A stretch of DNA of 64,000 nucleotides, from NCBI RefSeq assembly GCF_054482595.1, contig NZ_CM137008.1; one strand, written 5' to 3'. The translations under genes were made by a program, and so were the position numbers. Each line of letters opens with the position of its first letter. Position 1 is the stretch's first letter. Below are positions 8,740 to 54,186 of this stretch, in pieces. The notes below the pieces were generated by a model, which did no database searches, had not been told where the DNA came from, and saw only the letters and a list, made by a program, of their open reading frames with translations.

Positions 8740-8765
8740 AGTATCAGGAGATTAATATCAATAAA

Positions 8766-8840: not shown

Positions 8841-8875
8841 GATCCAAAAGCAAAAACCCGCCTTGTGGGCGGGTT
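8841..8875 (-). terminator. Rho-independent terminator (minus-strand sense), likely the ancestral tRNA-Phe terminator
   Basis: Stem AACCCGCC/GGCGGGTT with TTGT loop, followed on the minus strand by TTTTTGCTTTTGG. Confidence 0.55.
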
Positions 8876-8887
8876 CTTAAGAATTAG

Positions 8888-8909
8888 TGGTGCCGGACTC
8901 GGAATCGAA
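8888..8909 (-). repeat. 22-nt remnant of a tRNA-Phe 3-prime end (TTCGATTCCGAGTCCGGCACCA); candidate att repeat of a pheV-type island
   Basis: Minus strand carries the T-loop and acceptor 3-prime strand ending in CCA but no tRNA body; identity to tRNA-Phe is from memory (one G fewer than I recall). Confidence 0.6.
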
Positions 8910-9019
8910 GATTTCTTTTATCATATTGATATTAATATAATTTGTTTGGTTTGATTAAAAATGTACCCTCAATTATACCCGCAGTCCCTTTTGATATCGA
9001 AAGGGAATCACACTCGGGA

Positions 9020-27315: not shown

Positions 27316-27638
27316 TTTTTTGCACGCCCGTATTCAACGGCTTCTTTAAGGAGTTCATTTTCCATCGTTTTTTTGCCGAGCAGGCGCTGGAGTTCTTTAA
27401 TCTGCTTCATGGCGGCAGCAAGTTCAGAGGCAGGAACGACCTGTTCTCCTGCGGCCACAGCAGTAAGACTTCCCTCCTGGTATTGCTTGCGCCAGAGAAA
27501 TAACTGGCTGGCTGCCACACCGTGTTGCCGGGCAACAAGGGAGACTGTCATTCCCGGTTCAAAACTCTGCTGAACAATAGCGATCTTTTCCTGTGTAGTA
27601 CGCCGTCTGCGTTTCTCCGGTCCTAAGACATCAATCAT
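27273..27638 (-). CDS. insC: IS2 transposase OrfA (InsC)
   Basis: [47 protein letters not shown]... matches IS2 InsC as recalled. Confidence 0.9.
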
Positions 27639-28180
27639 CTGCTCTCCAATGACTAGTCTAAAAACTAGTATTAAGACTATCACTTAAATAAGTGATATTG
27701 GTTGTCTGGAGATTCAGGGGGCCAGTCTAGGCGTTGAGTAATGTGTTGATTACCTTAGAGCGCGAAAGTTTGTGGGTATGACAGTACTCATCCACAATTC
27801 GCAGTGTCTCATCACTGGTCATATTGAAAGTTATACGTGTTGTCATGATGAAGTTTTCTGTTAATCATACTGGTTGATATGCATAACATTTCATAAAAAA
27901 TACTGTTAATTCATATAATTGATTTTTTGACTGGTTTTATCCTCGTGTGGTGGAAAGCAGTATTACTGCCACTGTAGTCAGCATAAATCTATCACACAGA
28001 ACCACCGAAAATGAAGCATTGCTCAGGGGGAAGCTGCCACTCGTATGAGTTCTCTGAACCATGATAACCAGTATTTTTCGTTTTGGGTGATTTGTTTATC
28101 GTTACAGCTACATACAGTTCATGTACCATTAAAAAATAATAAAGGTTAATTAGTATTATTTATAGAAGTATGTTTATGTA

Positions 28181-33799: not shown

Positions 33800-35520
33800 A
33801 TGCATGTGTCAACGACGGATGAAAGTGGCTCTTCCGCAACCTGGGTGGAGATTTTCATGCCAGTGGACTCATTACCCTCTGCCTGAGTAGTTCAAATCCT
33901 GCTCGACCATACATCTGGCGTTTCAGCATCTTCAGGCGATTTACATGACCTTCGACAACACCATTACTCCAGTGACTACTGATTGCCTCACATATAGCTG
34001 CAGCATCAGCTTCCATCCCCGCCGCCACGCGCCGAAATTCTGCTGAACCGCTTTCGTGGACTCGAGTGAACCAACTGCTTAGCTGTGATTTATTTTGGGT
34101 TTTCAGAATACGGTAGAACTCGAGTGCCAGTTGCTGCGCTATTTTCAGCTCAGGTTCTTTTTCACACATCAGACTAATAAATCGGGAAGCATAATTTTCT
34201 TCATCCCTGGTTATTCTCCAGGGCATCAACCAGCGGCTTACCCGGGACACTGAAGGAAGTCTGACGGCAGTAGTAACCGGTGGGTTCCAGCCTTTACGCC
34301 ATTTGGCAACCGCATCCCTGACGATGGTTTCACTGCCTGTAAATCCCCGGGCCACCATTTCCCGCCATATCCGGCTGGCGTTATAATTACCACTTTCTCG
34401 TTGCTCTTTTAACCACTCCCTCCATGGGTCCAGAAGCCCTCGCTTTGGCGGTCGGGTTGACATTTCAGGGAATGTTCCTGAACGCACCCAGCGACTGACT
34501 GTCACACGCGACAGGCCTGTAATACGGGATATTTCCCTGAAACTACATCCCTTGTTATGCAGGGCCATAACCTCTGTCCAACGCTGATGCCGTTTTTTGC
34601 GGGTTTGTTGTTTTAGGCGTTCCGGACGACGGAGCGATGCTGCAGGCACAGATGGTTCTGGATCAGGTGATTTCTTTGGTGACAACTCACTGGCAACAAG
34701 ACGTATCAGAGGTATATGTCTGTACATCATTCGTTCAGGCGCATCGCCAATATTTTTTAGCAGATGCCATCGATCGGCCACCTGTCTGGCCTGAGGTGCA
34801 CCTTCACGTGCTGCTGTCGCATAGACTCCACTGCGATCACGCGAGACAATCTGTATTTCCGGATATTTTCTGAACCAGGTCGCCAGCGTACGCTGATCAC
34901 GGCCGGGAAGCAGGACGAGGGGAGGGTGAGTATCAAGATTGACGATTAACGTACCGTAACGGTGGCCCCGATGCCACGCCCACTCATCAATACCGACATG
35001 AGGCGAGCCTGACTGTTTCGTCTCCGGGGTATTGATAACCCTGCGAAGGAGAGTATCAGCACTGCAACGGAGACCCACTGCCGTTGCTGCCCGTTTCCCG
35101 GCCTCACCTCCGGCGATTAATCCCAGTTGACGTTGTAAATTTTGTAACGCCTGTGAAGACTGTTGGTGTGAACCGGCGAAGGGAGCAAGCGACTCGGCAA
35201 AAATTTTACGTGAACAAGCCGGGTTACGGCAGTACCAGTGGCGGACAGAAAATACAAGCCATAGCGTATGTCCTGAGCAGGGTAGATGCTGTATCCGGCG
35301 CCGACGACAACTATGAACAGAGTCGCTACGCTTAAAGCATTCAGGACATTGTGCTGTTTTGCGTTTTCCGTGGAGATGGAGGGTTATACCGTCAGAGCTA
35401 ATAATTTGTCGACTGCATCGCCATCCGCAAGGTAACTGTAGAAGTGTCTTAAGAGAGTGCATTGCGTTGCCCATGACTTAAAACAGCTTAGATCTTTGTT
35501 CACCAGAAAGTTTCATCCAT
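33800..35520 (-). mobile_element. ISL3-family insertion sequence (approximate ends)
   Basis: Contains a single 539-aa ISL3-type transposase gene; element ends were not mapped. Confidence 0.5.
33855..35474 (-). CDS. ISL3-family transposase
   Basis: N-terminal Cys-rich zinc-finger region, central DDE region and C-terminal SNGVVEGHVNRLKMLKRQMYGRAGFELLRQRVM. Confidence 0.8.
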   Translation of the reverse strand: MGNAMHSLKTLLQLPCGWRCSRQIISSDGITLHLHGKRKTAQCPECFKRSDSVHSCRRRRIQHLPCSGHTLWLVFSVRHWYCRNPACSRKIFAESLAPFAGSHQQSSQALQNLQRQLGLIAGGEAGKRAATAVGLRCSADTLLRRVINTPETKQSGSPHVGIDEWAWHRGHRYGTLIVNLDTHPPLVLLPGRDQRTLATWFRKYPEIQIVSRDRSGVYATAAREGAPQARQVADRWHLLKNIGDAPERMMYRHIPLIRLVASELSPKKSPDPEPSVPAASLRRPERLKQQTRKKRHQRWTEVMALHNKGCSFREISRITGLSRVTVSRWVRSGTFPEMSTRPPKRGLLDPWREWLKEQRESGNYNASRIWREMVARGFTGSETIVRDAVAKWRKGWNPPVTTAVRLPSVSRVSRWLMPWRITRDEENYASRFISLMCEKEPELKIAQQLALEFYRILKTQNKSQLSSWFTRVHESGSAEFRRVAAGMEADAAAICEAISSHWSNGVVEGHVNRLKMLKRQMYGRAGFELLRQRVMSPLA

Positions 35521-35590: not shown

Positions 35591-35859
35591 TACACCAGCG
35601 AAACCACACAGGTAGCTATTACCATATGTGGTAATACACTAGTTACAGGAAAAACATGCAGGTTCCGCAATACGTTGTGTGTTGCTGCTTAGTCAGGATC
35701 TTTTCTTCCATGCGAGATACGACAACACTTTTGAGGAAAGATGTTCACAACTGGTGGGGCGATTGCAACAGGTTTGTGCAGAACTCCCCCCGGATGGCAA
35801 TGCAGGGGGGAAAGGATTTTTCAGGTTGACCGCCCAGGTACATCAAATCAGTATGCTGC

Positions 35860-36585
35860 TCACGCCTGACGGTGCGATGAGTAATGTATTTCATACTCTT
35901 CCCGGTAGAGAGTTTCCCCCCAAAGAACCGGTTTATTCTCAGCAGTCAAATAAGTATGTTGTCGTACCAGAATTGGGCGGGAACGCTTTATTTTCAGCTT
36001 CTGGGCCGCATCCCGGCTGGGCAGCGCCACATGAACCTGGTTGGCAATTGTCTGTATCTCTATGCGAAGTGCCTGCTCAAAAATGTTTTGCAACGCATGG
36101 ACTTCCAGTTCCTGCTTATCTATTTGCAGGGCAAGAATTGAAGGCATATAACGAATTTCGAATGCAATTGGCTGCTGATTTATCAAGCGCAACCTTAACA
36201 GCCGATGGATGCTCTCTTTGCCTGATAACATCAGTTTTGTCCGTAAGAGTTCTGACGTTGAGACAGGTGCGAATTCGACGAGTTGATATTCGAGGTGTTT
36301 GTCGACACCAACCAGATCTTTTTCAAAAAATCCAAGAGATTGCGTATCCATTACGGTGATAATGGAAGGTTTTTTAACGAAGGTTCCACGTCCCCGAATG
36401 CGTTCAATCAATCCATCCGTAAGAAGACCCTGCATCGCATGGACCACTGTCGCTCGGGTGGTATTAAATTGGGCTGCAAGTTCGTTTTCAGAAGGTAAGC
36501 GTTCGCCTTGTTTATATACATTTTGTGCTATTCCATTGCGTAATGCTTCTCTGATCTGCAGGTAAATTGGCAAATTGCGATGCAT
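35860..36585 (-). CDS. GntR-family transcriptional regulator (HutC/UTRA-type)
   Basis: N-terminal winged HTH (LPSENELAAQFNTTRATVVHAMQGLLTDGLIERIRGRGTFV) and a C-terminal effector domain; divergent from the amidohydrolase gene. Confidence 0.85.
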   Translation of the reverse strand: MHRNLPIYLQIREALRNGIAQNVYKQGERLPSENELAAQFNTTRATVVHAMQGLLTDGLIERIRGRGTFVKKPSIITVMDTQSLGFFEKDLVGVDKHLEYQLVEFAPVSTSELLRTKLMLSGKESIHRLLRLRLINQQPIAFEIRYMPSILALQIDKQELEVHALQNIFEQALRIEIQTIANQVHVALPSRDAAQKLKIKRSRPILVRQHTYLTAENKPVLWGETLYREEYEIHYSSHRQA

Positions 36586-36613
36586 GTCAAATTAATCCTT
36601 CATTCTAAGTTGC

Positions 36614-36625
36614 ATAGTCAACTAT
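36614..36625. promoter_or_regulatory. Palindrome ATAGTCAACTAT in the divergent intergenic region; candidate GntR operator
   Basis: Perfect 5-2-5 inverted repeat containing a GT...AC core, between the regulator and the amidohydrolase gene. Confidence 0.3.
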
Positions 36626-36707
36626 ACAACTTCAAGGGTGACGGTATGTCATTTTAGCAGATATCACCTTCAGGTGTGGTCAGTTAAACATAAATGAGTT
36701 AGAGAAA

Positions 36708-37505
36708 ATGATTTTTGATACGCATGCGCATGTTTTTGTTCGAGGATTACCATTAGCGGAACATTGCCGATATGTTCCTGATTACGACGCCACACCGGAG
36801 AGTTATCTGACTCACTTGGATCGGTTTGGCATTGATGTTGGTATTCTGGTGCAACCCAGTTTTCTGGGGACGGATAACCACTATATGCTTGAGGCTCTTC
36901 GCCGTTACCCTACCCGGTTTCGTGGTGTAGCCGTTGTGGATCCAAACATTACGCGCTGTAAACTGGATGAAATGGCAAAATTAGGGGTCACTGGTATCCG
37001 CTTAAATTTAGTCGGCGTGGAAATTCCCGATCTTACGCAACCTGCATGGCAACACCTGTTAGAACATATTAAAGCCCTGGGATGGCATGTTGAGCTACAC
37101 AGAGCTGCGCGCGACTTGCCAGCGTTAATTACGGTATTACTTAAATCCGGTGTAAAGATTGTCGTTGACCATTTCGCGTTGCCTTCTCAGGAAGAGAAAC
37201 AAAACGATCCCGGATTTCAGTTTCTCCTTGAGCATGCAGAAACGCAGCAAATCTGGTTGAAACTTTCTGGCGCCTATCGCAATGGCAGTACTGAAACTCT
37301 CAACGATAACGTGGCACCGTTAATTCCTCTCCTGCTGCAGCATTTTGGACCTGCACATTTATTGTGGGGTAGCGACTGGCCACATACTCGATACGAAAAT
37401 GTCGTCAATTATCAAAAAACGTTCGAGTTACTGACGCAGCAAATACCTGATAAAGAAATGAGAAATAAAATTTTATCGGTTAGTGCAGAATCACTTATCG
37501 ATTAG
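36708..37505 (+). CDS. Amidohydrolase-2 family metal-dependent hydrolase (lactonase/decarboxylase-like)
   Basis: 265 aa with N-terminal HAH (MIFDTHAHVF) and C-terminal GSDWPH motifs typical of TIM-barrel amidohydrolases. Confidence 0.8.
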   Translation: MIFDTHAHVFVRGLPLAEHCRYVPDYDATPESYLTHLDRFGIDVGILVQPSFLGTDNHYMLEALRRYPTRFRGVAVVDPNITRCKLDEMAKLGVTGIRLNLVGVEIPDLTQPAWQHLLEHIKALGWHVELHRAARDLPALITVLLKSGVKIVVDHFALPSQEEKQNDPGFQFLLEHAETQQIWLKLSGAYRNGSTETLNDNVAPLIPLLLQHFGPAHLLWGSDWPHTRYENVVNYQKTFELLTQQIPDKEMRNKILSVSAESLID

Positions 37506-37536
37506 TTGGATTGAGAATATAGTCGAAAGGTATATC

Positions 37537-38886
37537 ATGAGCATATTTTATAAAAAAAGCTGGTACAAGTGGATTGTATTGGTGGTTTGTATTCTTGCCT
37601 ATTCATCAGGAAACCTGGTGCGCTGGAATTATACGGGAATATCGCAATATCTTATTGGTGAATGGCACATTGGAAAAGAAGAATTGGGGATCCTTGGTTC
37701 CGCATTCTTTTATGCCTACGCGATTGGGCAAAGTCCCTGGGGAACACTTACCGATATATTAGGCGGACGCAGAGTTATTTCTATCGGTATTTTAATTACC
37801 GCTATTATGTTCTCTCTCTTTGCTTTTGCGGGTGGCTACCATGCCGCTATCATCATTCGAGTATTAATGGGATTTGTTGGGGCGGCAACATTTGTGCCTT
37901 GTATGGCGGTACTTTCTCGCTGGTTTAGTAAAAAGGAGCGAGGTATGGTGCTGAATATCTTCTCTGGCACAGGTGGTGGATTAGGTGAGCTGTGGTCCTT
38001 TTTATTAATGCCATTGATTTCATTATTTATGGTAGGCGGCGCTACCGTGCTTGGCCTGAGCTCCTGGCGTGCATCTACGCTAATTATGGCGTTTGTCACA
38101 CTGGCGATCATGATCCTCTGTTTTGTCGGTATGCGCTCCGACCCGTCGGAATTAGGTCTTCCGTCCGTTGTTGAACAGGAGACGCGTAAGCAGGCGAAAG
38201 AACATAGCTATGCCAGGACACTGCTTAATGCGTTGCGCGATCCGTGGTTCTGGGTCATTACATTCGCCTGGCAAGGTTTTACCGTTTCTCTGCGTCTGCT
38301 ACCGGCCTGGTTGCCTATCTATGCGGCAGCTTACTACAAACAGACACAGGGATTATCCAGCGTTGAGGCGATGGTCGCAGGAGGTATGATAGCATCAGTG
38401 TATGTTGCCGGACGTATTTTGGGAACGCCTGTCTTTGGCAAATTATCTGACTTTTTGCTTGTCAGTTATAACGTACCAAGAACATTGATTATTGCTTGCT
38501 TCCATATCTTTATTACCGTCTCAATGTTTGCTCTTAGCCATCAAATGCCTTCCACATTTTTATTTGCAGTTCTGGTTTTTGTGATTGGTGCCGCGATAAA
38601 TATGTTCCCTCTGGTTAATGCAGTCGTCGCAGAAATCTGGCCGGTTAAAACGGGGGGCGCGTTAATGGGGATGGTGAATACGGTTGGGCAGTTAATAGGT
38701 GCCTCAGCGTTGGCCTACAGTGGTTTTATGGCAGAAAAATTTTCCATAGCCGGAGCAGGATACAGTTTTGAGTATCGTGGCATTTGGTATTTGGCAATGA
38801 TATTCAGTTCAATATCTATCCTGGCGTCTCTGTTGGCGATGCATCGCGAAAAACAAAGTATTCGGGAAAATGCCTTGAGTCATTAA
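37537..38886 (+). CDS. MFS transporter
   Basis: About 450 aa with roughly 12 hydrophobic segments; ATG at 37537 preceded by AAAGG. Confidence 0.85.
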   Translation: MSIFYKKSWYKWIVLVVCILAYSSGNLVRWNYTGISQYLIGEWHIGKEELGILGSAFFYAYAIGQSPWGTLTDILGGRRVISIGILITAIMFSLFAFAGGYHAAIIIRVLMGFVGAATFVPCMAVLSRWFSKKERGMVLNIFSGTGGGLGELWSFLLMPLISLFMVGGATVLGLSSWRASTLIMAFVTLAIMILCFVGMRSDPSELGLPSVVEQETRKQAKEHSYARTLLNALRDPWFWVITFAWQGFTVSLRLLPAWLPIYAAAYYKQTQGLSSVEAMVAGGMIASVYVAGRILGTPVFGKLSDFLLVSYNVPRTLIIACFHIFITVSMFALSHQMPSTFLFAVLVFVIGAAINMFPLVNAVVAEIWPVKTGGALMGMVNTVGQLIGASALAYSGFMAEKFSIAGAGYSFEYRGIWYLAMIFSSISILASLLAMHREKQSIRENALSH

Positions 38887-38891
38887 GCATA

Positions 38892-39947
38892 ATGTTTAAT
38901 CATATATTTACCCAGGTCAAACGTTCAGAAAATAAAAAAATGGCGGAAATCGCCCAATTCCTGCATGAAAATGATTTGAGCGTTGACACCACTGTCGAAG
39001 TATTTATTACCGTAACCCGCGATGAAAAGCTTATCGCGTGCGGCGGAATTGCCGGAAATATTATTAAATGCGTTGCTATCAGTGAATCCGTTCGCGGTGA
39101 AGGACTGGCGCTGACATTAGCCACCGAACTGATAAACCTCGCCTATGAGCGGCACAGCACGCATCTGTTTATTTATACCAAAACCGAATACGAGGCGCTG
39201 TTCCGCCAGTGCGGTTTTTCCACGCTGACCAGCGTCCCCGGCGTGATGGTGCTGATGGAAAACAGCGCCACGCGACTGAAACGCTATGCCGAATCGCTGA
39301 AAAAATTTCGTCATCCAGGGAACAAGATTGGCTGCATTGTGATGAACGCCAATCCCTTTACGAATGGTCACCGTTATCTGATTCAACAGGCTGCGGCACA
39401 GTGCGACTGGTTGCATCTGTTTTTAGTCAAAGAAGATTCTTCACGCTTCCCCTATGAAGACCGGCTGGATCTGGTGTTAAAAGGCACCGCCGATATTCCA
39501 CGCCTGACCGTGCATCGCGGCTCCGAATACATCATCTCCCGCGCTACGTTCCCTTGCTACTTCATTAAAGAACAGAGCGTCATTAACCATTGTTACACCG
39601 AAATTGATCTGAAGATTTTCCGTCAGTACCTCGCTCCCGCGCTGGGTGTAACTCACCGCTTTGTCGGTACTGAACCCTTTTGTCGCGTTACCGCCCAGTA
39701 CAACCAGGATATGCGCTACTGGCTGGAAACGCCGACTATCTCCGCACCGCCCATCGAACTGGTTGAAATTGAGCGGCTGTGTTACCAGGAGATGCCGATA
39801 TCCGCTTCCCGGGTACGCCAACTGCTGGCGAAAAACGATCTCACGGCTATCGCGCCGCTGGTCCCTGCAGTCACGCTGCATTATTTGCAGAACCTGCTTG
39901 AGCACTCCCGCCAGGACGCGGCAGCTCGTCAAAAGACCCCCGCATGA
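38892..39947 (+). CDS. citC: Citrate lyase ligase CitC
   Basis: Sequence (…VKRSENKKMAEIAQFLHENDLSVDTTVEVFITVTRDEKLIACGG...) matches E. coli CitC as recalled; start codon choice is uncertain. Confidence 0.88.
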   Translation: MFNHIFTQVKRSENKKMAEIAQFLHENDLSVDTTVEVFITVTRDEKLIACGGIAGNIIKCVAISESVRGEGLALTLATELINLAYERHSTHLFIYTKTEYEALFRQCGFSTLTSVPGVMVLMENSATRLKRYAESLKKFRHPGNKIGCIVMNANPFTNGHRYLIQQAAAQCDWLHLFLVKEDSSRFPYEDRLDLVLKGTADIPRLTVHRGSEYIISRATFPCYFIKEQSVINHCYTEIDLKIFRQYLAPALGVTHRFVGTEPFCRVTAQYNQDMRYWLETPTISAPPIELVEIERLCYQEMPISASRVRQLLAKNDLTAIAPLVPAVTLHYLQNLLEHSRQDAAARQKTPA

Positions 39948-39961
39948 GAAACAGGTGAAAA

Positions 39962-40258
39962 ATGAAAATAAACCAGCCCGCCGTTGCAGGCACCCTTGAG
40001 TCTGGGGATGTGATGATACGCATCGCCCCACTCGATACGCAGGATATCGACCTGCAAATCAACAGCAGCGTTGAGAAACAGTTTGGCGATGCCATTCGCA
40101 CCACCATTCTGGACGTTCTCGCCCGCTACAACGTGCGCGGCGTACAGCTGAATGTCGATGACAAAGGCGCACTGGACTGCATTTTACGTGCACGACTGGA
40201 AGCCCTGCTGGCACGCGCCAGCGGTATCCCGGCTCTGCCATGGGAGGATTGCCAATGA
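39962..40258 (+). CDS. citD: Citrate lyase acyl carrier protein CitD
   Basis: 98 aa ([42 protein letters not shown]...). Confidence 0.9.
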
Positions 40259-41163
40259 TTTCCGCTTCGCTGCAACAACGTAAAACTCGCACCCGCCGCA
40301 GTATGTTGTTTGTACCTGGTGCTAATGCCGCGATGGTCAGCAACTCCTTCATCTACCCGGCTGATGCCCTGATGTTTGACCTCGAAGACTCCGTTGCATT
40401 GCGTGAAAAAGACACCGCCCGCCGCATGGTTTACCACGCGCTGCAACATCCGCTTTATCGCGATATTGAAACCATTGTGCGTGTAAACGCGCTGGATTCC
40501 GAATGGGGTGTTAACGACCTGGAAGCCGTCGTTCGCGGTGGTGCGGACGTTGTGCGTCTGCCGAAAACCGATACCGCTCAGGATGTTCTGGATATCGAAA
40601 AAGAGATCCTGCGTATCGAAAAAGCCTGTGGTCGTGAACCCGGCAGTACCGGCCTGCTGGCGGCGATTGAATCTCCGCTGGGCATTACCCGCGCGGTAGA
40701 AATCGCTCACGCTTCCGAGCGTTTGATCGGTATCGCCCTCGGTGCAGAAGACTATGTGCGCAACCTGCGTACAGAACGCTCCCCGGAAGGAACTGAACTG
40801 CTGTTCGCTCGCTGCTCCATTTTGCAGGCCGCGCGTTCTGCGGGTATTCAGGCGTTCGATACCGTCTATTCCGACGCTAACAACGAAGCCGGATTCCTGC
40901 AAGAAGCCGCCCACATCAAACAGCTGGGCTTTGACGGCAAATCGCTGATCAACCCGCGTCAGATTGATCTGCTGCACAACCTCTACGCACCGACCCAGAA
41001 AGAAGTGGATCACGCCCGCCGCGTCGTAGAAGCCGCTGAAGCCGCCGCTCGCGAAGGCCTCGGCGTGGTTTCCCTGAACGGCAAGATGGTGGACGGTCCG
41101 GTTATCGATCGCGCCCGTCTGGTGCTCTCCCGCGCAGAACTTTCCGGCATCCGCGAAGAATAA
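40255..41163 (+). CDS. citE: Citrate lyase beta subunit CitE
   Basis: Start [34 protein letters not shown]...; overlaps citD stop (ATGA). Confidence 0.9.
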
Positions 41164-41173
41164 GGCAATCAAA

Positions 41174-42706
41174 ATGACGCAGAAAATTGAACAATCTCAA
41201 CGACAAGAACGGGTAGCGGCCTGGAATCGTCGCGCTGAATGCGATCTTGCCGCTTTCCAGAACTCGCCAAAGCAAACCTACCAGGCTGAAAAAGCGCGCG
41301 ATCGCAAACTGTGCGCCAACCTGGAAGAAGCGATTCGTCGCTCTGGTTTACAGGACGGCATGACGGCTTCCTTCCATCACGCTTTCCGTGGCGGTGACCT
41401 GATCGTCAATATGGTGATGGACGTCATCGCGAAGATGGGCTTTAAAAACCTGACTCTGGCCTCCAGCTCCCTGAGTGATTGCCATGCGCCGCTGGTAGAA
41501 CACATTCGCCAGGGCGTGGTTACCCGCATTTATACCTCTGGCCTGCGCGGTCCACTGGCGGAAGAAATCTCCCGTGGTCTGCTGGCGGAACCGGTGCAAA
41601 TCCACTCTCACGGCGGACGTGTGCATCTGGTACAGAGCGGCGAACTGAATATCGATGTGGCTTTCCTCGGCGTCCCGTCCTGTGATGAATTCGGTAATGC
41701 CAACGGCTACTCCGGTAAAGCCTGCTGCGGCTCCCTCGGCTATGCAATGGTTGATGCCGACAACGCAAAACAGGTCGTGATGCTTACCGAAGAACTGCTG
41801 CCTTATCCGCATAATCCGGCAAGCATTGAGCAAGATCAGGTTGATCTGATCGTCAAAGTTGATCGCGTTGGCGATGCTGCAAAAATCGGCGCTGGTGCTA
41901 CCCGTATGACCACTAACCCGCGCGAACTGCTTATTGCCCGTAGCGCTGCGGATGTGATTGTTAACTCTGGCTACTTCAAAGAAGGTTTCTCTATGCAGAC
42001 CGGCACCGGCGGCGCTTCGCTGGCGGTAACCCGTTTCCTGGAAGACAAAATGCGTAGCCGCGATATTCGCGCCGACTTCGCCCTCGGCGGTATTACCGCA
42101 ACGATGGTTGATCTGCACGAAAAAGGTCTGATCCGCAAACTGCTGGATGTGCAGAGCTTTGACAGCCATGCTGCGCAATCGCTGGCCCGTAACCCCAATC
42201 ACATCGAAATCAGCGCCAACCAGTACGCTAACTGGGGGTCGAAAGGCGCATCGGTTGATCGTCTCGACGTGGTGGTACTGAGTGCGCTGGAAATTGACAC
42301 CCAGTTCAACGTTAACGTGCTGACCGGCTCTGACGGCGTACTGCGTGGTGCTTCCGGTGGTCACTGCGATACCGCAATTGCCTCTGCGCTTTCCATCATC
42401 GTCGCGCCGCTGGTACGCGGTCGTATTCCGACGCTGGTGGATAACGTGCTGACCTGCATCACCCCGGGCTCCAGTGTCGATATTCTGGTCACAGACCACG
42501 GCATCGCTGTTAACCCGGCACGTCCGGAGCTGGCAGAACGTCTGCAGGAAGCGGGGATCAAAGTGGTTTCTATTGAGTGGCTGCGTGAACGTGCGCGTCT
42601 GCTGACCGGTGAACCACAGCCGATTGAATTCACCGACCGCGTCGTTGCCGTTGTGCGTTACCGCGATGGCTCGGTGATCGATGTTGTGCATCAGGTGAAG
42701 GAATAA
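41174..42706 (+). CDS. citF: Citrate lyase alpha subunit CitF
   Basis: 510-aa ORF in operon position after citE. Confidence 0.9.
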   Translation: MTQKIEQSQRQERVAAWNRRAECDLAAFQNSPKQTYQAEKARDRKLCANLEEAIRRSGLQDGMTASFHHAFRGGDLIVNMVMDVIAKMGFKNLTLASSSLSDCHAPLVEHIRQGVVTRIYTSGLRGPLAEEISRGLLAEPVQIHSHGGRVHLVQSGELNIDVAFLGVPSCDEFGNANGYSGKACCGSLGYAMVDADNAKQVVMLTEELLPYPHNPASIEQDQVDLIVKVDRVGDAAKIGAGATRMTTNPRELLIARSAADVIVNSGYFKEGFSMQTGTGGASLAVTRFLEDKMRSRDIRADFALGGITATMVDLHEKGLIRKLLDVQSFDSHAAQSLARNPNHIEISANQYANWGSKGASVDRLDVVVLSALEIDTQFNVNVLTGSDGVLRGASGGHCDTAIASALSIIVAPLVRGRIPTLVDNVLTCITPGSSVDILVTDHGIAVNPARPELAERLQEAGIKVVSIEWLRERARLLTGEPQPIEFTDRVVAVVRYRDGSVIDVVHQVKE

Positions 42707-42709
42707 GTC

Positions 42710-44123
<1,414 letters not shown>

Positions 44124-44148
44124 ATCATTAATATATCCGGAGTTAACT

Positions 44149-46746
44149 ATGTTAAAAGAATACCGTAAGCATGTAGCTGAGCGTGCCGCTGAGGGGATTG
44201 CGCCCAAACCCCTGGATGCAAACCAAATGGCCGCGCTTGTAGAGCTGCTGAAAAACCCGCCCGCGGGCGAAGAAGAATTCCTGTTAGATCTGTTAACCAA
44301 CCGTGTTCCCCCTGGCGTTGATGAAGCCGCCTATGTCAAAGCAGGCTTCCTGGCTGCTGTCGCCAAAGGTGAAGCCAAATCCCCACTGCTGACACCGGAA
44401 AAGGCCATCGAACTGCTGGGCACCATGCAGGGTGGTTACAACATTCATCCGCTGATCGACGCGCTGGATGATGCCAAACTGGCACCGATCGCTGCCAAAG
44501 CACTTTCTCACACGCTGCTGATGTTCGATAACTTCTATGACGTAGAAGAGAAAGCCAAAGCAGGCAACGAATATGCGAAGCAGGTAATGCAGTCCTGGGC
44601 GGATGCCGAATGGTTCCTGAATCGCCCGGCGCTGGCTGAAAAACTGACCGTTACCGTCTTCAAAGTCACTGGCGAAACCAACACCGATGACCTCTCTCCG
44701 GCACCGGATGCGTGGTCACGCCCGGATATCCCACTGCACGCGCTGGCGATGCTGAAAAACGCCCGTGAAGGCATCGAGCCAGATCAGCCTGGTGTTGTTG
44801 GCCCGATCAAACAGATTGAAGCTCTGCAACAGAAAGGTTTCCCGCTGGCGTACGTCGGTGACGTTGTGGGTACGGGGTCATCGCGTAAATCCGCCACGAA
44901 CTCCGTTCTGTGGTTTATGGGCGATGATATTCCACATGTGCCGAACAAACGCGGCGGTGGTTTGTGCCTCGGCGGTAAAATTGCACCCATCTTCTTTAAC
45001 ACGATGGAAGATGCGGGTGCACTGCCAATCGAAGTCGACGTCTCTAACCTGAACATGGGCGACGTAATTGACGTTTACCCGTACAAAGGTGAAGTGCGTA
45101 ACCACGAAACCGGCGAACTGCTGGCAACCTTCGAACTGAAAACCGACGTGCTGATTGATGAAGTGCGTGCTGGCGGCCGTATTCCGCTGATTATCGGGCG
45201 TGGCCTGACCACCAAAGCGCGTGAAGCACTTGGCCTGCCGCACAGTGATGTGTTCCGTCAGGCGAAAGATGTCGCTGAGAGCGATCGCGGCTTCTCGCTG
45301 GCGCAGAAAATGGTAGGTCGTGCCTGCGGTGTGAAAGGCATTCGTCCGGGCGCGTACTGCGAACCGAAAATGACTTCTGTAGGTTCACAGGACACCACCG
45401 GCCCGATGACCCGTGATGAACTGAAAGACCTGGCGTGCCTGGGCTTCTCGGCTGACCTGGTGATGCAGTCTTTCTGCCACACCGCGGCGTATCCGAAACC
45501 AGTTGACGTGAATACGCACCACACGCTGCCGGACTTCATTATGAACCGTGGCGGTGTGTCGCTGCGTCCGGGTGACGGCGTAATCCACTCCTGGCTGAAC
45601 CGTATGCTGCTGCCGGATACCGTCGGTACCGGTGGTGATTCCCATACCCGTTTCCCGATCGGCATTTCTTTCCCGGCAGGCTCCGGTCTGGTGGCATTTG
45701 CTGCTGCAACTGGCGTCATGCCGCTGGATATGCCGGAATCCGTTCTGGTGCGCTTCAAAGGCAAAATGCAGCCGGGCATCACCCTGCGCGATTTGGTACA
45801 CGCTATTCCGCTGTATGCGATCAAACAAGGTCTGCTGACCGTTGAGAAGAAAGGCAAGAAAAACATCTTCTCTGGCCGCATCCTGGAAATTGAAGGTCTG
45901 CCGGATCTGAAAGTTGAGCAGGCCTTTGAGCTGACCGATGCGTCCGCCGAGCGTTCTGCTGCCGGTTGTACCATCAAGCTGAACAAAGAACCGATCATCG
46001 AATACCTGAACTCCAACATCGTCCTGCTGAAGTGGATGATCGCGGAAGGTTACGGCGATCATCGTACCCTGGAACGCCGTATTCAGGGCATGGAAAAATG
46101 GCTGGCGAATCCTGAGCTGCTGGAAGCCGATGCAGATGCGGAATACGCGGCAGTGATCGACATCGATCTGGCGGATATCAAAGAGCCAATCCTCTGTGCT
46201 CCGAACGACCCGGATGACGCGCGTCCGCTGTCTGCGGTACAGGGCGAGAAGATCGACGAAGTGTTTATCGGTTCCTGCATGACCAACATCGGTCACTTCC
46301 GTGCTGCGGGTAAACTGCTGGATGCGCATAAAGGCCAGCTGCCGACCCGCCTGTGGGTGGCACCGCCAACCCGTATGGACGCCGCGCAGTTGACCGAAGA
46401 AGGCTACTACAGCGTCTTCGGTAAGAGTGGTGCGCGTATCGAGATCCCTGGCTGTTCCCTGTGTATGGGTAACCAGGCGCGTGTAGCAGACGGTGCGACG
46501 GTGGTTTCCACCTCTACCCGTAACTTTCCGAACCGTTTGGGTACTGGCGCGAATGTCTTCCTGGCTTCTGCGGAACTGGCCGCTGTTGCGGCGCTGATTG
46601 GCAAACTGCCGACGCCGGAAGAGTACCAGACCTACGTGGCGCAGGTAGATAAAACCGCCGTTGATACTTACCGTTATCTGAACTTCAACCAGCTTTCTCA
46701 GTATACCGAGAAAGCGGATAGGGTGATTTTTCCTAGTGTGGTTTAA
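44149..46746 (+). CDS. acnB: Aconitate hydratase B / 2-methylisocitrate dehydratase AcnB
   Basis: 865 aa; N-terminus [47 protein letters not shown]... matches AcnB throughout; RBS CCGGAG upstream. Confidence 0.93.
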
Positions 46747-46815
46747 GAAGTCAGTGTGCTGCGTATAAAAAGCTAATACCAGGCTGCCTGTCATATCGAT
46801 TTCATGCAGGATAAG

Positions 46816-46846
46816 TAGAACTCCGTCTAATCTAGACGGAGTTCTA
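46816..46846. repeat. Palindrome TAGAACTCCGTCTA-ATC-TAGACGGAGTTCTA downstream of acnB; related copy at 58007-58040
   Basis: Perfect 14-bp inverted repeat with 3-nt spacer; a near-copy abuts the start of IS66 orf1 at 58007-58040. Confidence 0.45.
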
Positions 46847-46989
46847 TTGTATTGATGGCTTTGGTAGAAGCGTAAGTGTACAGCGAGAGCTGTATTGACA
46901 GGAATGCGTTATTCAGTTGGCAGTGTATTGCGCAGGGGGAGCCGTTCGCTGACGTAAGCGGCTCGTCAGAACCGTATTGATATTTACTG

Positions 46990-47531
46990 AGCGGTCAGTT
47001 CAACTTTCCAGGGCAACAGATCACGTACCCGGTTTGCCGGCCAGTCCTGGATATGTTCAATGACGTAACGCAGCCATTTTCTGGCTCCTCATTGTTCAGA
47101 CGGCATGTGCCGATCAGCGAGTACAACACCGCCGCATGTTCGCCACCGTTGTCGGAACCCACGAAGAGCCAGTTTTTCCGGCCTACGGCCACTCCCCGTA
47201 AGGCGTTCTCTGCGATGTTGTTGTCGATTTCCACCCAGCCATTGCTGCAGTACACATTCAGGCCATCCCACTGTTTCAGCAGGTATGCGAACGCTTTTGC
47301 CGTATCCGAGTGACGCGACAGTGTTTTCATCTGAGTCTGTATCCAGTCATACAGTGACTGCATCAGTGGCGCAGCTCTGGCTTTTCTTGCTGCCAGACGC
47401 TGTTCTGCTGAACATCCCCGGACTTCTGCCTCGGTGGCATACAGTTCACCGATACGCTGCAGGGCTTCCGTGGTGATGTCGGTTGGCACTCTTACATGCA
47501 CATCGTGGATTCTTCTCCGGGAATGAGCCAT
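46990..47531 (-). pseudogene. IS66-family transposase TnpC, C-terminal fragment with frameshift near the 3-prime end
   Basis: [50 protein letters not shown]... matches the TnpC C-terminal half; the true C-terminus is in another frame. Confidence 0.7.
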
Positions 47532-48659: not shown

Positions 48660-49827
48660 AACCTTCCTCATAATGGTGAAATCATTCGCTATCGGTTACA
48701 CGGTACGCGATGTCGCCAAAGGCAGCTGGATCGACGAATCCACGGTCACGCTACCGAAAGCGCCGCCGCTTAACACCCTGCCTCGGGCGACCAAAGTGCC
48801 GGAGCCACTGCCGCCGCAGGAAGATTACACCTTTGAAGGTTACCGCAACGCCGACGGCAGCGTGGGCACCAAAAACCTGTTGGGTATTACCACCAGCGTG
48901 CACTACATGGCAGACGTTGAGGACTACGTGGTTAAAATTATCGAACGCGACCTGCTGCCGAAATACCCGAGCATCGACGGCGTGGTCGACTTGAACCACC
49001 TCTACGGCTGTGGCGTAGCGATTAATGTACCGGCCGCCGTGGTGCCAATTCGCACCATCCATAATATTGCGCTGAACCCAAACTTCGGTGGCGAAGTGAT
49101 GGTGGTGGGCATGCAGTGCGGTGGCAGCGACGCGTTCTCCGGCGTTACCACTAACCCCGCTGTCGGCTACGACTCTGACCTGCTGGTGCGCTGCGGCGCA
49201 ACGGTGATGTTCTCCGAAGTCACTGAAGTACGCGACGCCATTCATCTGTTAACGCCACGCGCCATCAATGAAGAAGTGGGCAGGCGTCTGCTCGAAGAGA
49301 TGGCCTGATACGATAACTATCCCGATATGGGCAAAACCGACCGCAGCGCCAACCCTTCGCCGGGCAACAAAAAGGGCGGCCTCGCCAACGTGGTAAAGAA
49401 AGCACTCGGCTCCATTGCTAAATCGGGTAAAACCGCAATTGTTGAAGTGCTGTCGCCCGGTCAACACCCGACTAAACGCGGATTAATTTACGCCGCGACG
49501 CCAGCCAGCGATTTTGTCTGTGGCACGCAACAGGTGGCTTCGGGTATCACCGTGCAAGTGTTTACGACCGGCCGTGGTACGACGTACGGCCTGATGGCGG
49601 TACCCGTCATTAAAATGGCGACCCGCACCGGGCTGGCGAACCACTGGTTTGATTTAATGGATATTAACGCAGGCACTATCGCTACCGGCGAAGAGACCAT
49701 TGAAGAGGTGGGCTGGAAGTTGTTCCACTTTATTCTCGACGTCGCCAGCGGGAAGAAGAAAACTTTCTCGGATCAATGGGGATTGCATAACCAGCTGGCA
49801 GTGTTTAACCCGGCACCGGTGGCCTGA
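48660..49827 (+). pseudogene. garD: Galactarate dehydratase GarD-like gene, decayed (5-prime truncated, shift near 48680, in-frame TGA at 49306)
   Basis: Two same-frame ORFs (48673-49308 and 49327-49827) separated by TGA where GarD has Trp; homology starts mid-SAF domain; about 60 aa fewer than expected. Confidence 0.7.
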
Positions 49828-50962: not shown

Positions 50963-51301
50963 GTGAAACATCTGACAGAAATGGTGAGGCAGTACAAAGC
51001 GGGCAAAACAAATGGAATTTATGCCGTTTGTTTTGCCCGCTTTGTGCTGCATGGGGCGAGCGATGTGCCGGATGAGTATGTTCGTCGCACCATTGGGCCA
51101 GGCGTCTGCAAAGTCAACGTTGCAACCGAGTTGAAGATCGCCTTCTCTGACGCCATCAAAGCTTGGTTTGCTGAAAATCAGCAGAGCAACGATCCGTGCT
51201 TTTACATGCGGGTTGGCATGGACGCCATGAAAGAGGTGGTCAGAAGCAAAATCGCCGTCTGCGGCTCGGCAAATCGATTACGGCTACCGGCGGAGGCCTG
51301 A
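50963..51301 (+). pseudogene. In-frame deletion-fusion of kbaZ 5-prime end to kbaY 3-prime end (aga operon remnant)
   Basis: GTG 50963 with GGAGAGGA RBS; KbaZ-like N-terminus ([22 protein letters not shown]) switches at about 51030 to a class II aldolase C-terminus ([22 protein letters not shown]...). Confidence 0.6.
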
Positions 51302-51414
51302 TCCAACAGCGTATTACCTCAATATTTCAAAATAATTATAAGTCTCACAAATATGAAGGCGCGTCCTTAAACCGGGTAGCGCCTTCCATTATCCTAAAAT
51401 TCGAGGAGCCCTAT

Positions 51415-52986
51415 ATGACACAAAAAAAATCTTTTAAATCAAAATTATGGGAGTTTTTACAAAGTCTGGGAAAAACCTTTATGTTCCCGGTTTCGCTTCT
51501 TGCCTTTATGGGATTGCTGCTGGGTATCGGTAGTTCAGTCACCAGCCCTTCCACCATTACTAGTTTTCCCTTTCTGGGCGGCGAATTTACCCAGTTGACC
51601 TTTGGCTTTATCGCTATGGTCGGTGGCTTTGCTTTTACCTATCTGCCGCTGATGTTTGCCATGGCGATCCCCATGGGGCTTGCCAAGCGCAACAAAGCGG
51701 TCGCTGCCTTTGCCGGGTTCGTTGGCTACATGCTGATGAACATGAGCATTAATTATTACCTGACGGCTACCCACCAGCTTGCCGACCCCGCCACCATGAA
51801 ACAGGTAGGACAATCGATCGTGCTGGGCATTCAAACCCTGGAGATGGGGGTATTAGGTGGCATTGTGGTTGGGGTTATCACCTATTTTCTGCATGACCGT
51901 TTTCAGGACACGGTTCTGCATGACGCCTTCGCCTTCTTTAGCGGCATTCGTTTCGTGCCGATTATTACCGCGCTCACCCTGTCGCTGGTGGGTCTGTTCA
52001 TTCCCATGCTGTGGGAATACGTCGCGCTGGGCATCGCGGGTATTGGGCATATCATCCAGAGCACCAGCGTTTTCGGCCCCTTCCTCTACGGCGTAGGCGT
52101 GCTGCTGCTTAAACCTTTTGGTCTGCACCACATCCTGCTGGCGATGGTGCGTTTTACCCCAGCAGGCGGCATTGAAATGGTAAATGGCCATGAGGTCGCC
52201 GGGGCGCTGAATATCTTCTACGCCGAGCTCAAAGCCGGCCTGCCGTTTAGCCCGCACGTTACCGCGTTTCTGTCACAAGGGTTTATGCCGACCTTTATCT
52301 TCGGTTTACCCGCCGTGGCTTACGCCATCTACCGCACCGCGCGTCCGGAAAATCGGCCGGTCATTAAGGGGTTGCTGCTTTCCGGCGTGCTGGTTTCCGT
52401 CGTCACCGGTATTTCAGAGCCGATTGAGTTCCTGTTCCTGTTTATCGCCCCCGCGCTTTACGCCTTCCATATCGTCATGTCTGGCCTGGCGCTGATGGTA
52501 ATGGCCCTGCTGGGAGTGACCATCGGCAATACCGACGGCGGCATTCTGGATCTGCTGATTTTCGGCGTGATGCAGGGAATGTCGACCAAATGGTATCTGC
52601 TGTTCCCGGTTGGTATTGCCTGGTTTGCCATCTACTTCTTTGTCTTCCGCTGGTACATCCTCAAACACAACATCAAAACGCCGGGCCGCGAGGTGGATGT
52701 TCAGGGGGCACAGCAAGCCGTCGAGGCGAACACCCGCGCGCGCGGAAAATCAAAATACGATCACGAGCTTATCCTGCGTGCGCTCGGAGGTAAAGAGAAC
52801 ATTGAGTCGCTTGATAACTGTATTACCCGCTTGCGTCTGGTGGTGAAAGATATGGGCCTTATCGATCAGCAGGCGCTGAAAGCGGCAGGCGCGTTGTCAG
52901 TGGTGGTGCTTGATGCGCATAGCGTGCAGGTGATCATCGGACCGCAGGTACAGAGCGTCAAAACCGGCATTGAAGCCTTAATTTAA
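51415..52986 (+). CDS. PTS EIICB component, glucose/maltose (MalX-like) family
   Basis: ATG 51415 with GAGGAG RBS; EIIC membrane domain plus C-terminal EIIB (LGGKENIESLDNCITRLRLVVKD) with phospho-Cys motif. Confidence 0.85.
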   Translation: MTQKKSFKSKLWEFLQSLGKTFMFPVSLLAFMGLLLGIGSSVTSPSTITSFPFLGGEFTQLTFGFIAMVGGFAFTYLPLMFAMAIPMGLAKRNKAVAAFAGFVGYMLMNMSINYYLTATHQLADPATMKQVGQSIVLGIQTLEMGVLGGIVVGVITYFLHDRFQDTVLHDAFAFFSGIRFVPIITALTLSLVGLFIPMLWEYVALGIAGIGHIIQSTSVFGPFLYGVGVLLLKPFGLHHILLAMVRFTPAGGIEMVNGHEVAGALNIFYAELKAGLPFSPHVTAFLSQGFMPTFIFGLPAVAYAIYRTARPENRPVIKGLLLSGVLVSVVTGISEPIEFLFLFIAPALYAFHIVMSGLALMVMALLGVTIGNTDGGILDLLIFGVMQGMSTKWYLLFPVGIAWFAIYFFVFRWYILKHNIKTPGREVDVQGAQQAVEANTRARGKSKYDHELILRALGGKENIESLDNCITRLRLVVKDMGLIDQQALKAAGALSVVVLDAHSVQVIIGPQVQSVKTGIEALI

Positions 52987-52997
52987 CAGGAGGAGTG

Positions 52998-54173: not shown

Positions 54174-54186
54174 GGATCTTACCCCG

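Follow-up and report, generated by a model that had tools for sequence, protein, structure and literature searches.

A probable ten-gene accessory operon of Escherichia coli in which second copies of citCDEFXG and acnB adjoin genes for a lactonase-like hydrolase and an MFS transporter

In Escherichia coli K-12, the dpiBA genes lie divergent from citC, citT follows citG, and acnB has its own separate locus, a layout correctly stated in the preliminary description of the DNA studied here; acnB adjoins yacL. The standard citrate-fermentation cluster of Klebsiella uses citS-oadGAB-citAB. The tufA and tufB genes of Salmonella and E. coli represent the concerted evolution of paralogues by gene conversion. 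The locus analyzed here lies in a window of 64,000 nucleotides, the whole stretch of DNA examined (contig NZ_CM137008.1 of assembly GCF_054482595.1). In our best explanation, to which as a whole we give a probability of about 0.7, the region is a ten-gene accessory operon on an IS-flanked 11.3-kb module within a chromosomal island. The module includes, in this order, a GntR regulator gene, a divergent gene for an Amidohydro_2 lactonase-like hydrolase, an MFS transporter gene, citCDEFXG, and acnB:

35628..46966, no strand: conserved 11.3-kb cargo module, common to all flank contexts (megablast of the window)
33855..35474, minus: ISEc38 (ISL3-family) transposase, left flank of the module (ORF and RefSeq annotation)
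35860..36585, minus: GntR/HutC-family regulator, HTH and UTRA (matches to NCBIfam GntR/HutC subfamilies; RefSeq WP_000554934.1)
36609..36622, plus: operator-like near-palindrome GTTGCATAGTCAAC in the divergent intergenic region
36708..37505, plus: Amidohydro_2 (LigI/COG3618-type) lactonase-like hydrolase, first gene of the operon (PF04909, E = 1e-43)
37537..38886, plus: MFS transporter, organic-anion type (RefSeq WP_001596154.1; NCBIfam matches below cutoff)
38892..39947, plus: citC, citrate lyase ligase, island paralogue (TIGR00124, 589.6 bits, above cutoff)
39962..40258, plus: citD, citrate lyase acyl carrier protein (ORF and RefSeq; 0 amino acid differences from K-12)
40255..41163, plus: citE, citrate lyase beta subunit (ORF and RefSeq; 0 amino acid differences from K-12)
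41174..42706, plus: citF, citrate lyase alpha subunit (ORF and RefSeq; 4 of 510 amino acids differ from K-12)
42710..43261, plus: citX, holo-ACP synthase (ORF and RefSeq annotation)
43236..44123, plus: citG, triphosphoribosyl-dephospho-CoA synthase, whose C-terminal tail is island-type (NF007503, 641 bits, above cutoff)
44149..46746, plus: acnB, aconitase B, island paralogue, last gene of the operon (TIGR00117, 1716 bits, cutoff 1287)
46814..46848, plus: candidate terminator, a perfect 16-bp hairpin 68 nt past the acnB stop (RNA fold)
46995..47531, minus: IS66-family transposase fragment, right flank of the module (ORF, RefSeq annotation, megablast)

According to the ORFs and RefSeq annotation, all six cit genes are intact and stand in the E. 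coli operon order, with 95-99% nucleotide identity per gene to K-12 (98.0% for citC) and 0-8 amino acid differences. The island AcnB (865 aa) matches its equivalog model over the full length and differs from the K-12 protein at 8 residues. Because the island Cit and AcnB proteins show 0-8 residue differences from K-12, their canonical substrates are expected. The homologues of the regulator carry the Pfam GntR and UTRA domains, and the MFS protein matches the PgtP, D-galactonate, and NarK subfamilies of NCBIfam, each below cutoff.

The cit genes are joined to their neighbors on either side by very short spacers:

38887..38891, plus: junction 1, the 5-nt MFS-citC spacer GCATA, between the MFS stop TAA (38884-38886) and the citC ATG (38892)
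44124..44148, plus: junction 2, the 25-nt citG-acnB spacer ATCATTAATATATCCGGAGTTAACT, with the ribosome-binding site GGAG at 44139-44142

The citG stop codon TGA occupies 44121-44123 and the acnB ATG begins at 44149, so that both gap lengths in the preliminary description, 5 bp and 25 bp, were exact to the base. As it also stated, no IS lies at either junction: the ORF list and RefSeq show no transposase ORF there, and IS genes come no closer than the ISEc38 transposase (33855-35474) and the IS66 fragment (46995-47531). The suspected difference at the end of CitG is real (...WFLASLTGR, 295 aa, on the island versus ...WFLAQI, 292 aa, in K-12), and the citG-acnB adjacency is indeed not K-12 synteny, the arrangement being lineage-specific. 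Both junctions are free of indels in all five island alleles compared and are present in 30-32 complete genomes. Their tightness is not due to chance; the junctions are real and natural.

The K-12 homology starts and stops within a few codons of gene boundaries, and the look of the sequence alone could suggest that an assembly error or a laboratory construct had joined the MFS gene, citCDEFXG, and acnB, as was proposed initially. We rejected this reading, which retains next to no probability, on the independent occurrences of the junctions. The whole 10.5 kb is found at 98.4-100% identity in 30 of 5,426 complete genomes (a module frequency of about 0.6% of complete E. coli genomes) that come from unrelated sources and assemblers and represent three flank contexts; in addition, three gut-metagenome contigs carry the junctions, and diverged homologues of them exist in Enterobacter and in a third lineage. 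The operon is thus almost certainly a real accessory operon. Its unique part was identified in 32 genomes, each time on the chromosome and with at least 99.5% identity; the sources of the 30 genomes with the whole segment are humans, dog, mink, poultry, gull, seawater, and wastewater. The three contexts are ISEc38 plus an IS66 fragment, IS66 on both sides, and IS100, and the module ends at 35628 and about 46966 are constant while the flanking ISs vary. In megablast comparisons with strains ES1 and strain 10, homology begins at 35628 in both and stops at 46966-47027, and the flanks differ. The five island alleles show zero indels over 11,041 nt, and the annotation gives all ten genes as intact. 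A literature search found no paper on the operon.

The second origin proposed initially was a lineage-specific rearrangement that moved the native cit and acnB genes beside an accessory MFS gene and stripped them of their promoters. The island copies, which are 97-98% identical to the K-12 genes, do lack the native promoter regions, and alignment of the junctions to K-12 showed that the K-12 flanks are missing on both sides; that part of the proposal stands. The island copies, however, are not rearranged native loci. Strain 746 holds an intact native dpiBA-citCDEFXG-citT in addition to the island copy, so that in this carrier, where it was read directly, the island cit is an addition to the native locus; and the records of island-bearing genomes among the matches listed contain a further cit or acnB match at another place. 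Since both copies coexist, and the missing K-12 flanks also speak against it, we rejected relocation of the native genes as very improbable.

The age of the fusion can be assessed from its versions in other lineages. The Enterobacter island (L005) aligns continuously with window positions 35866-44295 at 79%, across both junctions, and its acnB is a 5' remnant with an in-frame stop. The MFS-citC spacer is 1 nt in this island and 2 nt in the third lineage (L100), which keeps the MFS-citC junction. Because both junctions are common to a version about 21% diverged, the fusion of the lactonase-MFS genes to cit and acnB is probably old.

The interiors of the cit genes and acnB have a different affiliation from their edges, and two tracts were delimited:

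38933..44072, plus: E. coli-type tract inside citC-citG (informative sites)
44181..46705, plus: Escherichia-type tract inside acnB (informative sites; differences from K-12)

Over 38898-44104 the cit segment is 97.9% identical to K-12 and gap-free, and acnB is 96.6% identical. Of 1040 informative cit sites, 960 agree with K-12 and not with the Enterobacter island, with switches at 38910-38933 on the 5' side, where informative sites are few and the citC alignment bears indels, and at 44072-44075 on the 3' side. The citG tail (TCC CTA ACC GGG CGC) aligns with Enterobacter and not with K-12. From late in junction 2 into the acnB start (44134-44155), 16 informative sites are of the Enterobacter type and none of the K-12 type; the whole block 44075-44155 has 22 Enterobacter-type and 4 K-12-type sites (Fisher p = 7e-26 against the 960/1040 in cit). 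A further switch at 44155-44181 leads into acnB, where 21 of 22 informative sites in 44181-44300 are of the K-12 type, and differences from K-12 turn dense past about 46716. As judged from these sites, only the first codons, the last codons, and the spacer are island-type, and the breakpoints at 38910-38933, 44072-44075, and 44155-44181 fall inside the homologous region.

The cit interior diverges from native E. coli genes by 1-2% and is most similar to phylogroup B2, with 46 of 5171 nt differing from the native copy of strain 536 (B2). It lies within native E. coli diversity, since the native copies differ among themselves by 85-91 nt. In an evenly spaced sample of native E. coli acnB, identity to the window allele was 96.3-97.5% and none was closer than 97.5%; likewise, none in the best-ranked list was closer than 97.4% to the SWHEFF_58 island allele. 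Only 20 records reach 99% identity in acnB, and among the native E. coli acnB genes listed we found no donor of the tract and no source of its 2.7% allele diversity. Averaged over all pairs, the five island alleles differ by 0.28% in the unique genes, by 1.17% in cit, and by 2.68% in acnB (chi-square p = 6e-28). The GC content jumps at the junction, from 45% in the unique genes to 51-58% in cit and acnB, a step also present in the Enterobacter version. In strain 746, 113 of 5171 sites distinguish the island cit from the native cit of the same genome, and thus no tract identical to the resident copy was found for cit in this strain. These differences argue that conversion was not recent in strain 746 and that the donors were other lineages.

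Taken at face value, a cit interior inside E. coli diversity could mean that the fusion is recent, having arisen within Escherichia by illegitimate recombination of native genes with no later conversion, and that the Enterobacter version, whose cit genes are also host-like in GC, derives from it. We consider this unlikely. The unique genes of the E. coli and Enterobacter islands are 72-81% identical, and the sequence specific to the fusion (citG tail, spacer, first acnB codons, and MFS 3' end) has diverged strongly between them and contains indels, while the cit interior is only 1-3% from native E. coli; hence the fusion must be far older than the cit interior. The island and native paralogues diverge by 1-3% and the two junction-sharing island lineages by 13-28%, and the paralogues are therefore more alike than the age of the fusion allows. 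An old fusion followed by later homogenisation is the likely history. After entry of the island into Escherichia, homologous recombination with chromosomal copies (gene conversion) would have overwritten the interiors of its cit and acnB genes. Such replacement may have extended to the limits of homology, which would leave the first codons, last codons, and spacer island-type and give junctions that look as if cut at gene boundaries.

The regulator and the operon probably share one control region. The GntR/HutC regulator gene and the operon would diverge from it, with GTTGCATAGTCAAC as the putative operator. In aligned intergenic regions, this near-palindrome is near-invariant (one base varies) among the E. 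coli island, Enterobacter, L008, and two Klebsiella species, and it occurs once in the window, where 0.03 occurrences are expected by chance. A consensus promoter scan of 36586-36707 found nothing, with counts not above chance. The gaps between the genes are short or overlapping, and the operon is therefore probably one transcript, presumably controlled by the GntR regulator. Translation of citC is probably coupled to that of the MFS gene; a GGAG site of its own precedes acnB. The RNA fold of 46747-46880 has a 16-pair stem (-42.5 kcal/mol, z = -3.4); a simple terminator scan did not call the hairpin at 46814-46848.

Amidohydro_2 (PF04909) covers residues 4-257 of the hydrolase. The best NCBIfam match is 4-sulfomuconolactone hydrolase (136.8 bits, cutoff 500) and a further match scores 24 bits (cutoff 400), so that no NCBIfam equivalog cutoff is reached and the protein falls in none of the known-substrate families of 4-sulfomuconolactone hydrolase, L-fucono-1,5-lactonase, or LigI. 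Its nearest named families are lactonases. In the PDB it matches 2FFI (1e-67, 231.8 bits), 4I6K (7e-59), and LigI (4.5e-24 for 4D8L, 88.8 bits, to 5.9e-23 for 4DI8), and no close relative with a demonstrated substrate appeared among the PDB and NCBIfam matches. The LigI residues H31, H33, Y49, R124, H180, and D248, which we take to be catalytic or substrate positions, correspond to H6, H8, Y22, R98, H155, and D223, a mapping supported by the 4D8L alignment, and are invariant in 17 homologues.

Gene neighborhoods in other taxa suggest that the substrate is a tricarboxylate lactone, for which isocitrate lactone would be the simplest candidate. Hydrolase homologues adjoin native acnB in L008 and L102. 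The Klebsiella homologue has AcnB, a YbhJ-like aconitase, PrpF, an IDH-like gene, citCDEFG, and oadGAB as neighbors, that of Veillonella a YbhJ-like aconitase and a CcpC-like regulator, and that of E. fergusonii CitMHS transporters, a second lactonase, aconitases, and PrpF. Of 80 homologue loci, 16 include a PrpB-like (methyl)isocitrate lyase and 62 an MFS gene, and many loci hold the regulator, transporter, and hydrolase alone. The MFS protein may import the lactone, which the hydrolase would open; AcnB would then isomerise the product to citrate, to be split by citrate lyase into oxaloacetate and acetate. A tricarboxylate-lactone substrate falls a little short of even odds, and isocitrate lactone specifically is a tentative and rather doubtful choice. 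If the route exists, the spare copies under a GntR switch would free it from CitA/DpiB citrate sensing.

The same architecture and history might instead serve a non-lactone substrate: the MFS protein could, for example, be a direct importer of citrate, aconitate, or some other tricarboxylate, and a related compound could be the substrate of the hydrolase, working as a decarboxylase, hydratase, esterase, or amidase. Amidohydro_2 also includes decarboxylases and hydratases, and the scores below all equivalog cutoffs and the PrpF and IDH-like genes beside the Klebsiella homologue are compatible with such activities. The nearest named relatives, however, are all lactonases and the LigI-type catalytic positions are conserved, and loci limited to regulator, transporter, and hydrolase fit a single hydrolytic step into central metabolism. 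Overall, we regard a non-lactone substrate as unlikely, though deserving of serious weight.

Compared with citCDEFXG-citT of K-12, the island has the same six citrate lyase genes in the same order and with the same internal overlaps. It differs in the absence of a linked citT and of a divergent dpiBA/citAB, in having the MFS gene 5 nt upstream of citC, in the citG tail, in the appended acnB, and in being a second copy located on an island. The citrate cluster of K. oxytoca and K. spallanzanii likewise combines a GntR gene, an amidohydrolase homologue (58-59% amino acid identity), a transporter, citrate lyase, and AcnB in one locus. There, however, the transporter is of the CitMHS type, citX is absent, oxaloacetate decarboxylase (oadGAB) is added, and AcnB lies upstream together with PrpF, a YbhJ-like aconitase, and an IDH-like gene. 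LigI, the 2-pyrone-4,6-dicarboxylate lactonase of the COG3618 branch, belongs to the same Pfam family as the hydrolase and is alignable with it end to end, but the similarity is weak (88.8 bits for 4D8L versus 231.8 bits for 2FFI), the R130 position is not conserved, and the context of LigI is protocatechuate 4,5-cleavage genes rather than aconitase and citrate lyase. As in tufA/tufB-type conversion, the copies on the island and in the core genome are more alike than the age of their duplication allows, and the tracts end inside homology. In contrast to tufA and tufB, one copy is the cargo of a mobile island and the other a core gene, and the tracts come from other lineages (B2-like in the case of cit) rather than from the copy of the present host.

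The two junctions singled out in the preliminary description, between the MFS transporter gene and citC and between citG and acnB, lie where it placed them and have the spacings that it gave. They belong to an accessory block with the following features.

Features of the block and of its two junctions (window positions)
35860-36585, minus strand: GntR/HutC regulator
36708-37505, divergent from the GntR/HutC regulator: Amidohydro_2 hydrolase
37537-38886: MFS transporter
38884-38886 (MFS stop codon TAA) to 38892 (citC start codon ATG), plus strand: MFS–citC junction with the 5-nt spacer GCATA
38892-44123: citC, citD, citE, citF, citX, citG
44121-44123 (citG stop codon TGA) to 44149 (acnB start codon ATG), plus strand: citG–acnB junction with a 25-nt spacer, GGAG at 44139-44142
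44149-46746: acnB

As had also been noticed, neither junction contains a transposase gene, the nearest IS genes being located at 33855-35474 and 46995-47531. The tail of CitG, suspected there of differing from that of K-12, does so (ASLTGR in the window versus AQI in K-12). The K-12 layout given there is correct: dpiBA and citC are divergently oriented, citT comes after citG, and acnB is at a separate place beside yacL. Within the block the intergenic gaps range from -26 to +31 nt, and a perfect 16-bp hairpin is found at 46814-46848, 68 nt 3' of acnB. The control region contains GTTGCATAGTCAAC (36609-36622), which is near-invariant in a diverged homologous island from Enterobacter (the Enterobacter version), in contig L008 from another enterobacterial lineage, and in two Klebsiella species, with one base differing in Klebsiella. 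A scan for consensus promoters and terminators gave counts not above chance and no match in the control region, so it is from the layout that we predict transcription of the block as a single unit. The loop of the hairpin is inverted between island alleles, reading CCGTCTAATCTAGACGG in the window and strain 746 and its exact reverse complement, CCGTCTAGATTAGACGG, in ES1, SWHEFF_58 and strain 10, which looks like a hairpin template-switch inversion. Long ORFs antisense to the GntR gene (35679-36359, plus strand), citE (40126-41172, minus), citF (41348-42742, minus) and acnB (45385-46794, minus) overlap these well-supported genes and are unlikely to be genes in their own right.

The tight junctions had been attributed either to an assembly or construct artefact or to a rearrangement of the native loci. 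The artefact explanation is refuted by the distribution of the block, since the whole 10.5 kb is present in 30 of 5,426 complete E. coli genomes (about 0.6%) at 98.4-100% identity, from human, dog, mink, poultry, gull, seawater, and wastewater sources, and the module (35628 to about 46966) occupies at least three different flanking contexts and also appears on three gut-metagenome contigs. The unique GntR–hydrolase–MFS part was identified in 32 genomes and is chromosomal in every one, and the five alleles that we aligned across 11,041 nt contain zero indels. A metagenome scan for the island-type citG–acnB junction recovered E. coli-type copies only and no new lineage. Relocation of the native locus is refuted as well, because strain 746 carries an intact dpiBA-citCDEFXG-citT locus in addition to the island copy; the listed island-bearing genomes have two cit or acnB places, as opposed to one in other genomes. 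A suspected assembly artefact is thereby replaced by a defined, rare accessory operon.

The island adjoins the chromosomal gsp type II secretion locus (1-9500) in the window, whereas a near-identical island in strain SM107 adjoins cadCBA, beside an integrase fragment; it therefore occupies different chromosomal sites. No tRNA genes were found within the 64-kb window. Relative to the otherwise identical SM107 island, the window has a 1.3-kb insertion at 26400-27730 with two ORFs of 136 and 301 amino acids, presumably InsC and InsD of IS2. Other accessory genes nearby include malX (PTS IIBC), a MalY/PatB-family gene and a 637-aa protein annotated as 'enterotoxin' (51196-56076), as well as a UxaA-family hydrolase split into two ORFs at 48673-49827, treated in RefSeq as a frameshifted pseudogene, with agaR adjacent. 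The malX gene is a classic marker of ExPEC pathogenicity islands. A second accessory module at 58349-61996, bordered by IS66 remnants, comprises a LysR regulator gene and, in divergent orientation to it, genes for a dcuC-like C4-dicarboxylate transporter and a 436-aa amidohydrolase. Unlike cit and acnB, this dcuC has zero nucleotide match to K-12 dcuC, which rules it out as another native-like paralogue.

The junctions themselves are old. The arrangement GntR–hydrolase–MFS–citCDEFXG is also present in an Enterobacter genome and in a metagenome contig that matches it, and this version aligns to window 35866-44295 in a single piece at 79% identity, across both junctions. Its MFS–citC gap is 1 nt, and its citG is followed by a homologous spacer and then by the first ~150 nt of acnB, which we consider a remnant because it has a GTG start and an in-frame stop. 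In a third lineage (contig L100, 78% identity) the MFS–citC gap is 2 nt. Since both junctions are shared with the Enterobacter version, and the MFS–citC junction with L100 too, they are older than the split of these lineages, between which the unique genes are 72-81% identical at the nucleotide level and the fusion-only sequence (citG tail and spacer) has strongly diverged. In two further enterobacterial contigs (L102, 10001-15265; L008, 3-5682), a GntR–lactonase–MFS module lies directly upstream or downstream of native acnB-yacL. The acnB linkage may have begun from such an adjacency, in agreement with a short native-like stretch 3' of the island acnB stop codon.

The interiors of the cit and acnB genes tell a different story from their ends. 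The cit segment (38898-44104) is 97.9% identical to K-12 without gaps, and acnB (44150-46769) is 96.6% identical. The cit interior differs from the native copy of the phylogroup B2 strain 536 at 46 of 5171 sites, compared with 85-91 sites between native copies, and the island cit is therefore nested within E. coli diversity. We defined informative sites by comparing the window with both K-12 and the Enterobacter island. Within cit, K-12-type sites account for 960 of 1040. The majority is reversed between 44075 and the seventh base of acnB, a stretch that takes in the citG tail and the spacer and has 22 Enterobacter-type against 4 K-12-type sites; from 44181 on 21 of 22 are again K-12-type (Fisher p = 7e-26). 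The corresponding switch in citC is located between 38910 and 38933, and that at the 3' end of acnB near 46705-46716, beyond which differences from K-12 are dense. The three unique genes have a GC content of 45%, compared with 51-58% for cit and acnB, and the Enterobacter version has the same step. Island alleles differ from one another on average by 0.28% in the unique genes, by 1.17% in cit and by 2.68% in acnB (p = 6e-28), and they have differing patches inside cit; for example, the window allele is B2-like at ~39.36-40.9 kb, an interval in which three others have a divergent patch in common. Judged from these sequences, the simplest history would be that the fusion is old and that homologous recombination with the chromosomal genes later replaced its paralogous interiors as far as homology extends. 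Such replacement would explain why the joins look as if cut at start and stop codons.

Copying of the host's own native cit was ruled out in strain 746, where the island and native copies have 113 differences, which places the exchanges in earlier hosts. Native acnB donors were compared in E. coli, within the listed matches. Among the native acnB genes listed from 5,425 E. coli genomes, identity reaches at most 97.5% to the window allele in an evenly spaced sample and 97.4% to the SWHEFF_58 allele in a best-ranked list, and a match of the divergent SWHEFF_58 allele to native E. coli acnB was rejected on this basis. The acnB tract is Escherichia-like, being 78.6% identical to L008 and 72% to Klebsiella. 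Island acnB alleles from the window and three other contigs (L012, L013, L096) differ by 1.5-4%, and their unique genes by no more than 0.4%; among the native E. coli acnB genes sampled, identity to any of these alleles stays at or below 97.5%.

The hydrolase belongs to Pfam Amidohydro_2 and falls below the cutoffs of every named family; among these it most resembles lactonases (4-sulfomuconolactone hydrolase, L-fuconolactonase, and LigI). The equivalents of LigI H31, H33, Y49, R124, H180, and D248 are invariant in 17 homologues. Of the solved structures, the nearest are 2FFI and 4I6K, both uncharacterised, the latter of which we take to have been deposited with citrate bound. Genes for enzymes of (iso)citrate-type tricarboxylates recur near homologues of the hydrolase. 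Homologues are found immediately beside native acnB, upstream or downstream, in L008 and L102; with AcnB, a YbhJ-like aconitase, PrpF, an IDH-like dehydrogenase, citCDEFG, and oadGAB in Klebsiella; with a YbhJ-like aconitase and a CcpC-like regulator in Veillonella; and with CitMHS transporters, a second lactonase, aconitases, and PrpF in E. fergusonii. A profile search of genome contigs with the amidohydrolase alignment, in which relatives from Burkholderiales, Pseudomonas, and Bradyrhizobium were dominant, identified no Enterobacterales lineage closer than Klebsiella spallanzanii. In the neighbourhood statistics for 80 species-representative loci, an MFS gene is adjacent in 62 and a gene for a PrpB-like (methyl)isocitrate lyase in 16.

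The island Cit and AcnB proteins have 0-8 residue differences from K-12 and should therefore act on citrate, aconitate, and isocitrate. A single hydrolytic step yielding one of these compounds suggests a tricarboxylate lactone as the substrate, with isocitrate lactone the simplest candidate. In the route that we propose from gene content, the MFS protein would import the lactone, the hydrolase would open its ring, AcnB would convert isocitrate to citrate, and citrate lyase, activated by CitC, CitX, and CitG, would cleave citrate to oxaloacetate and acetate. Private copies under a GntR switch would make the route independent of external-citrate sensing by CitA/DpiB. Large 'tricarboxylate' loci surround the homologous amidohydrolase in E. 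fergusonii (L103, 9122-20795) and K. oxytoca (L006, 1-20311), with CitMHS transporters, a beta-propeller lactonase, AcnA/AcnD-like and YbhJ-like aconitases, PrpF, an IDH-like dehydrogenase, AcnB, citrate lyase, and oxaloacetate decarboxylase. Such loci may serve for the use of more than one lactone or stereoisomer.

A further reading compatible with these observations, to which we give a probability of roughly 30%, is a widespread uncharacterised pathway for isocitrate lactone or a related tricarboxylate lactone, packaged in E. coli on an island with spare core copies that recombination keeps near-identical. Its core would be a transporter and a LigI-like lactonase, ranging from Burkholderiales and Pseudomonas to Klebsiella and Veillonella, and recombination with the chromosome would represent concerted evolution of island cargo and core genome. 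Isocitric lactone is reported from human urine and plasma as well as from metabolomic studies of plants. With the lactone in urine and plasma and the module beside an ExPEC marker, a niche role is conceivable.

The literature searched contains no description of this operon or of an isocitrate-lactone hydrolase. We regard the unit as an accessory operon of moderate interest whose proposed function can be tested, and as a clear case of island-to-core paralogue homogenisation. It offers a natural example of island-borne core-gene paralogues overwritten by chromosomal sequence up to the ORF ends, which can make ancient fusions look engineered and may mislead annotation based on synteny and identity. 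The uncharacterised branch of LigI-like amidohydrolases that includes the structural-genomics entries 2FFI and 4I6K is also given a function that can be tested. The gene families are known and each gene is annotated in RefSeq; what the searched literature lacks is the lactonase–MFS–citCDEFXG–acnB fusion, its GntR control, and its mosaic history. By gene content the unit belongs to the citrate-lyase operon family, but it differs from that family in its regulation and transport genes.
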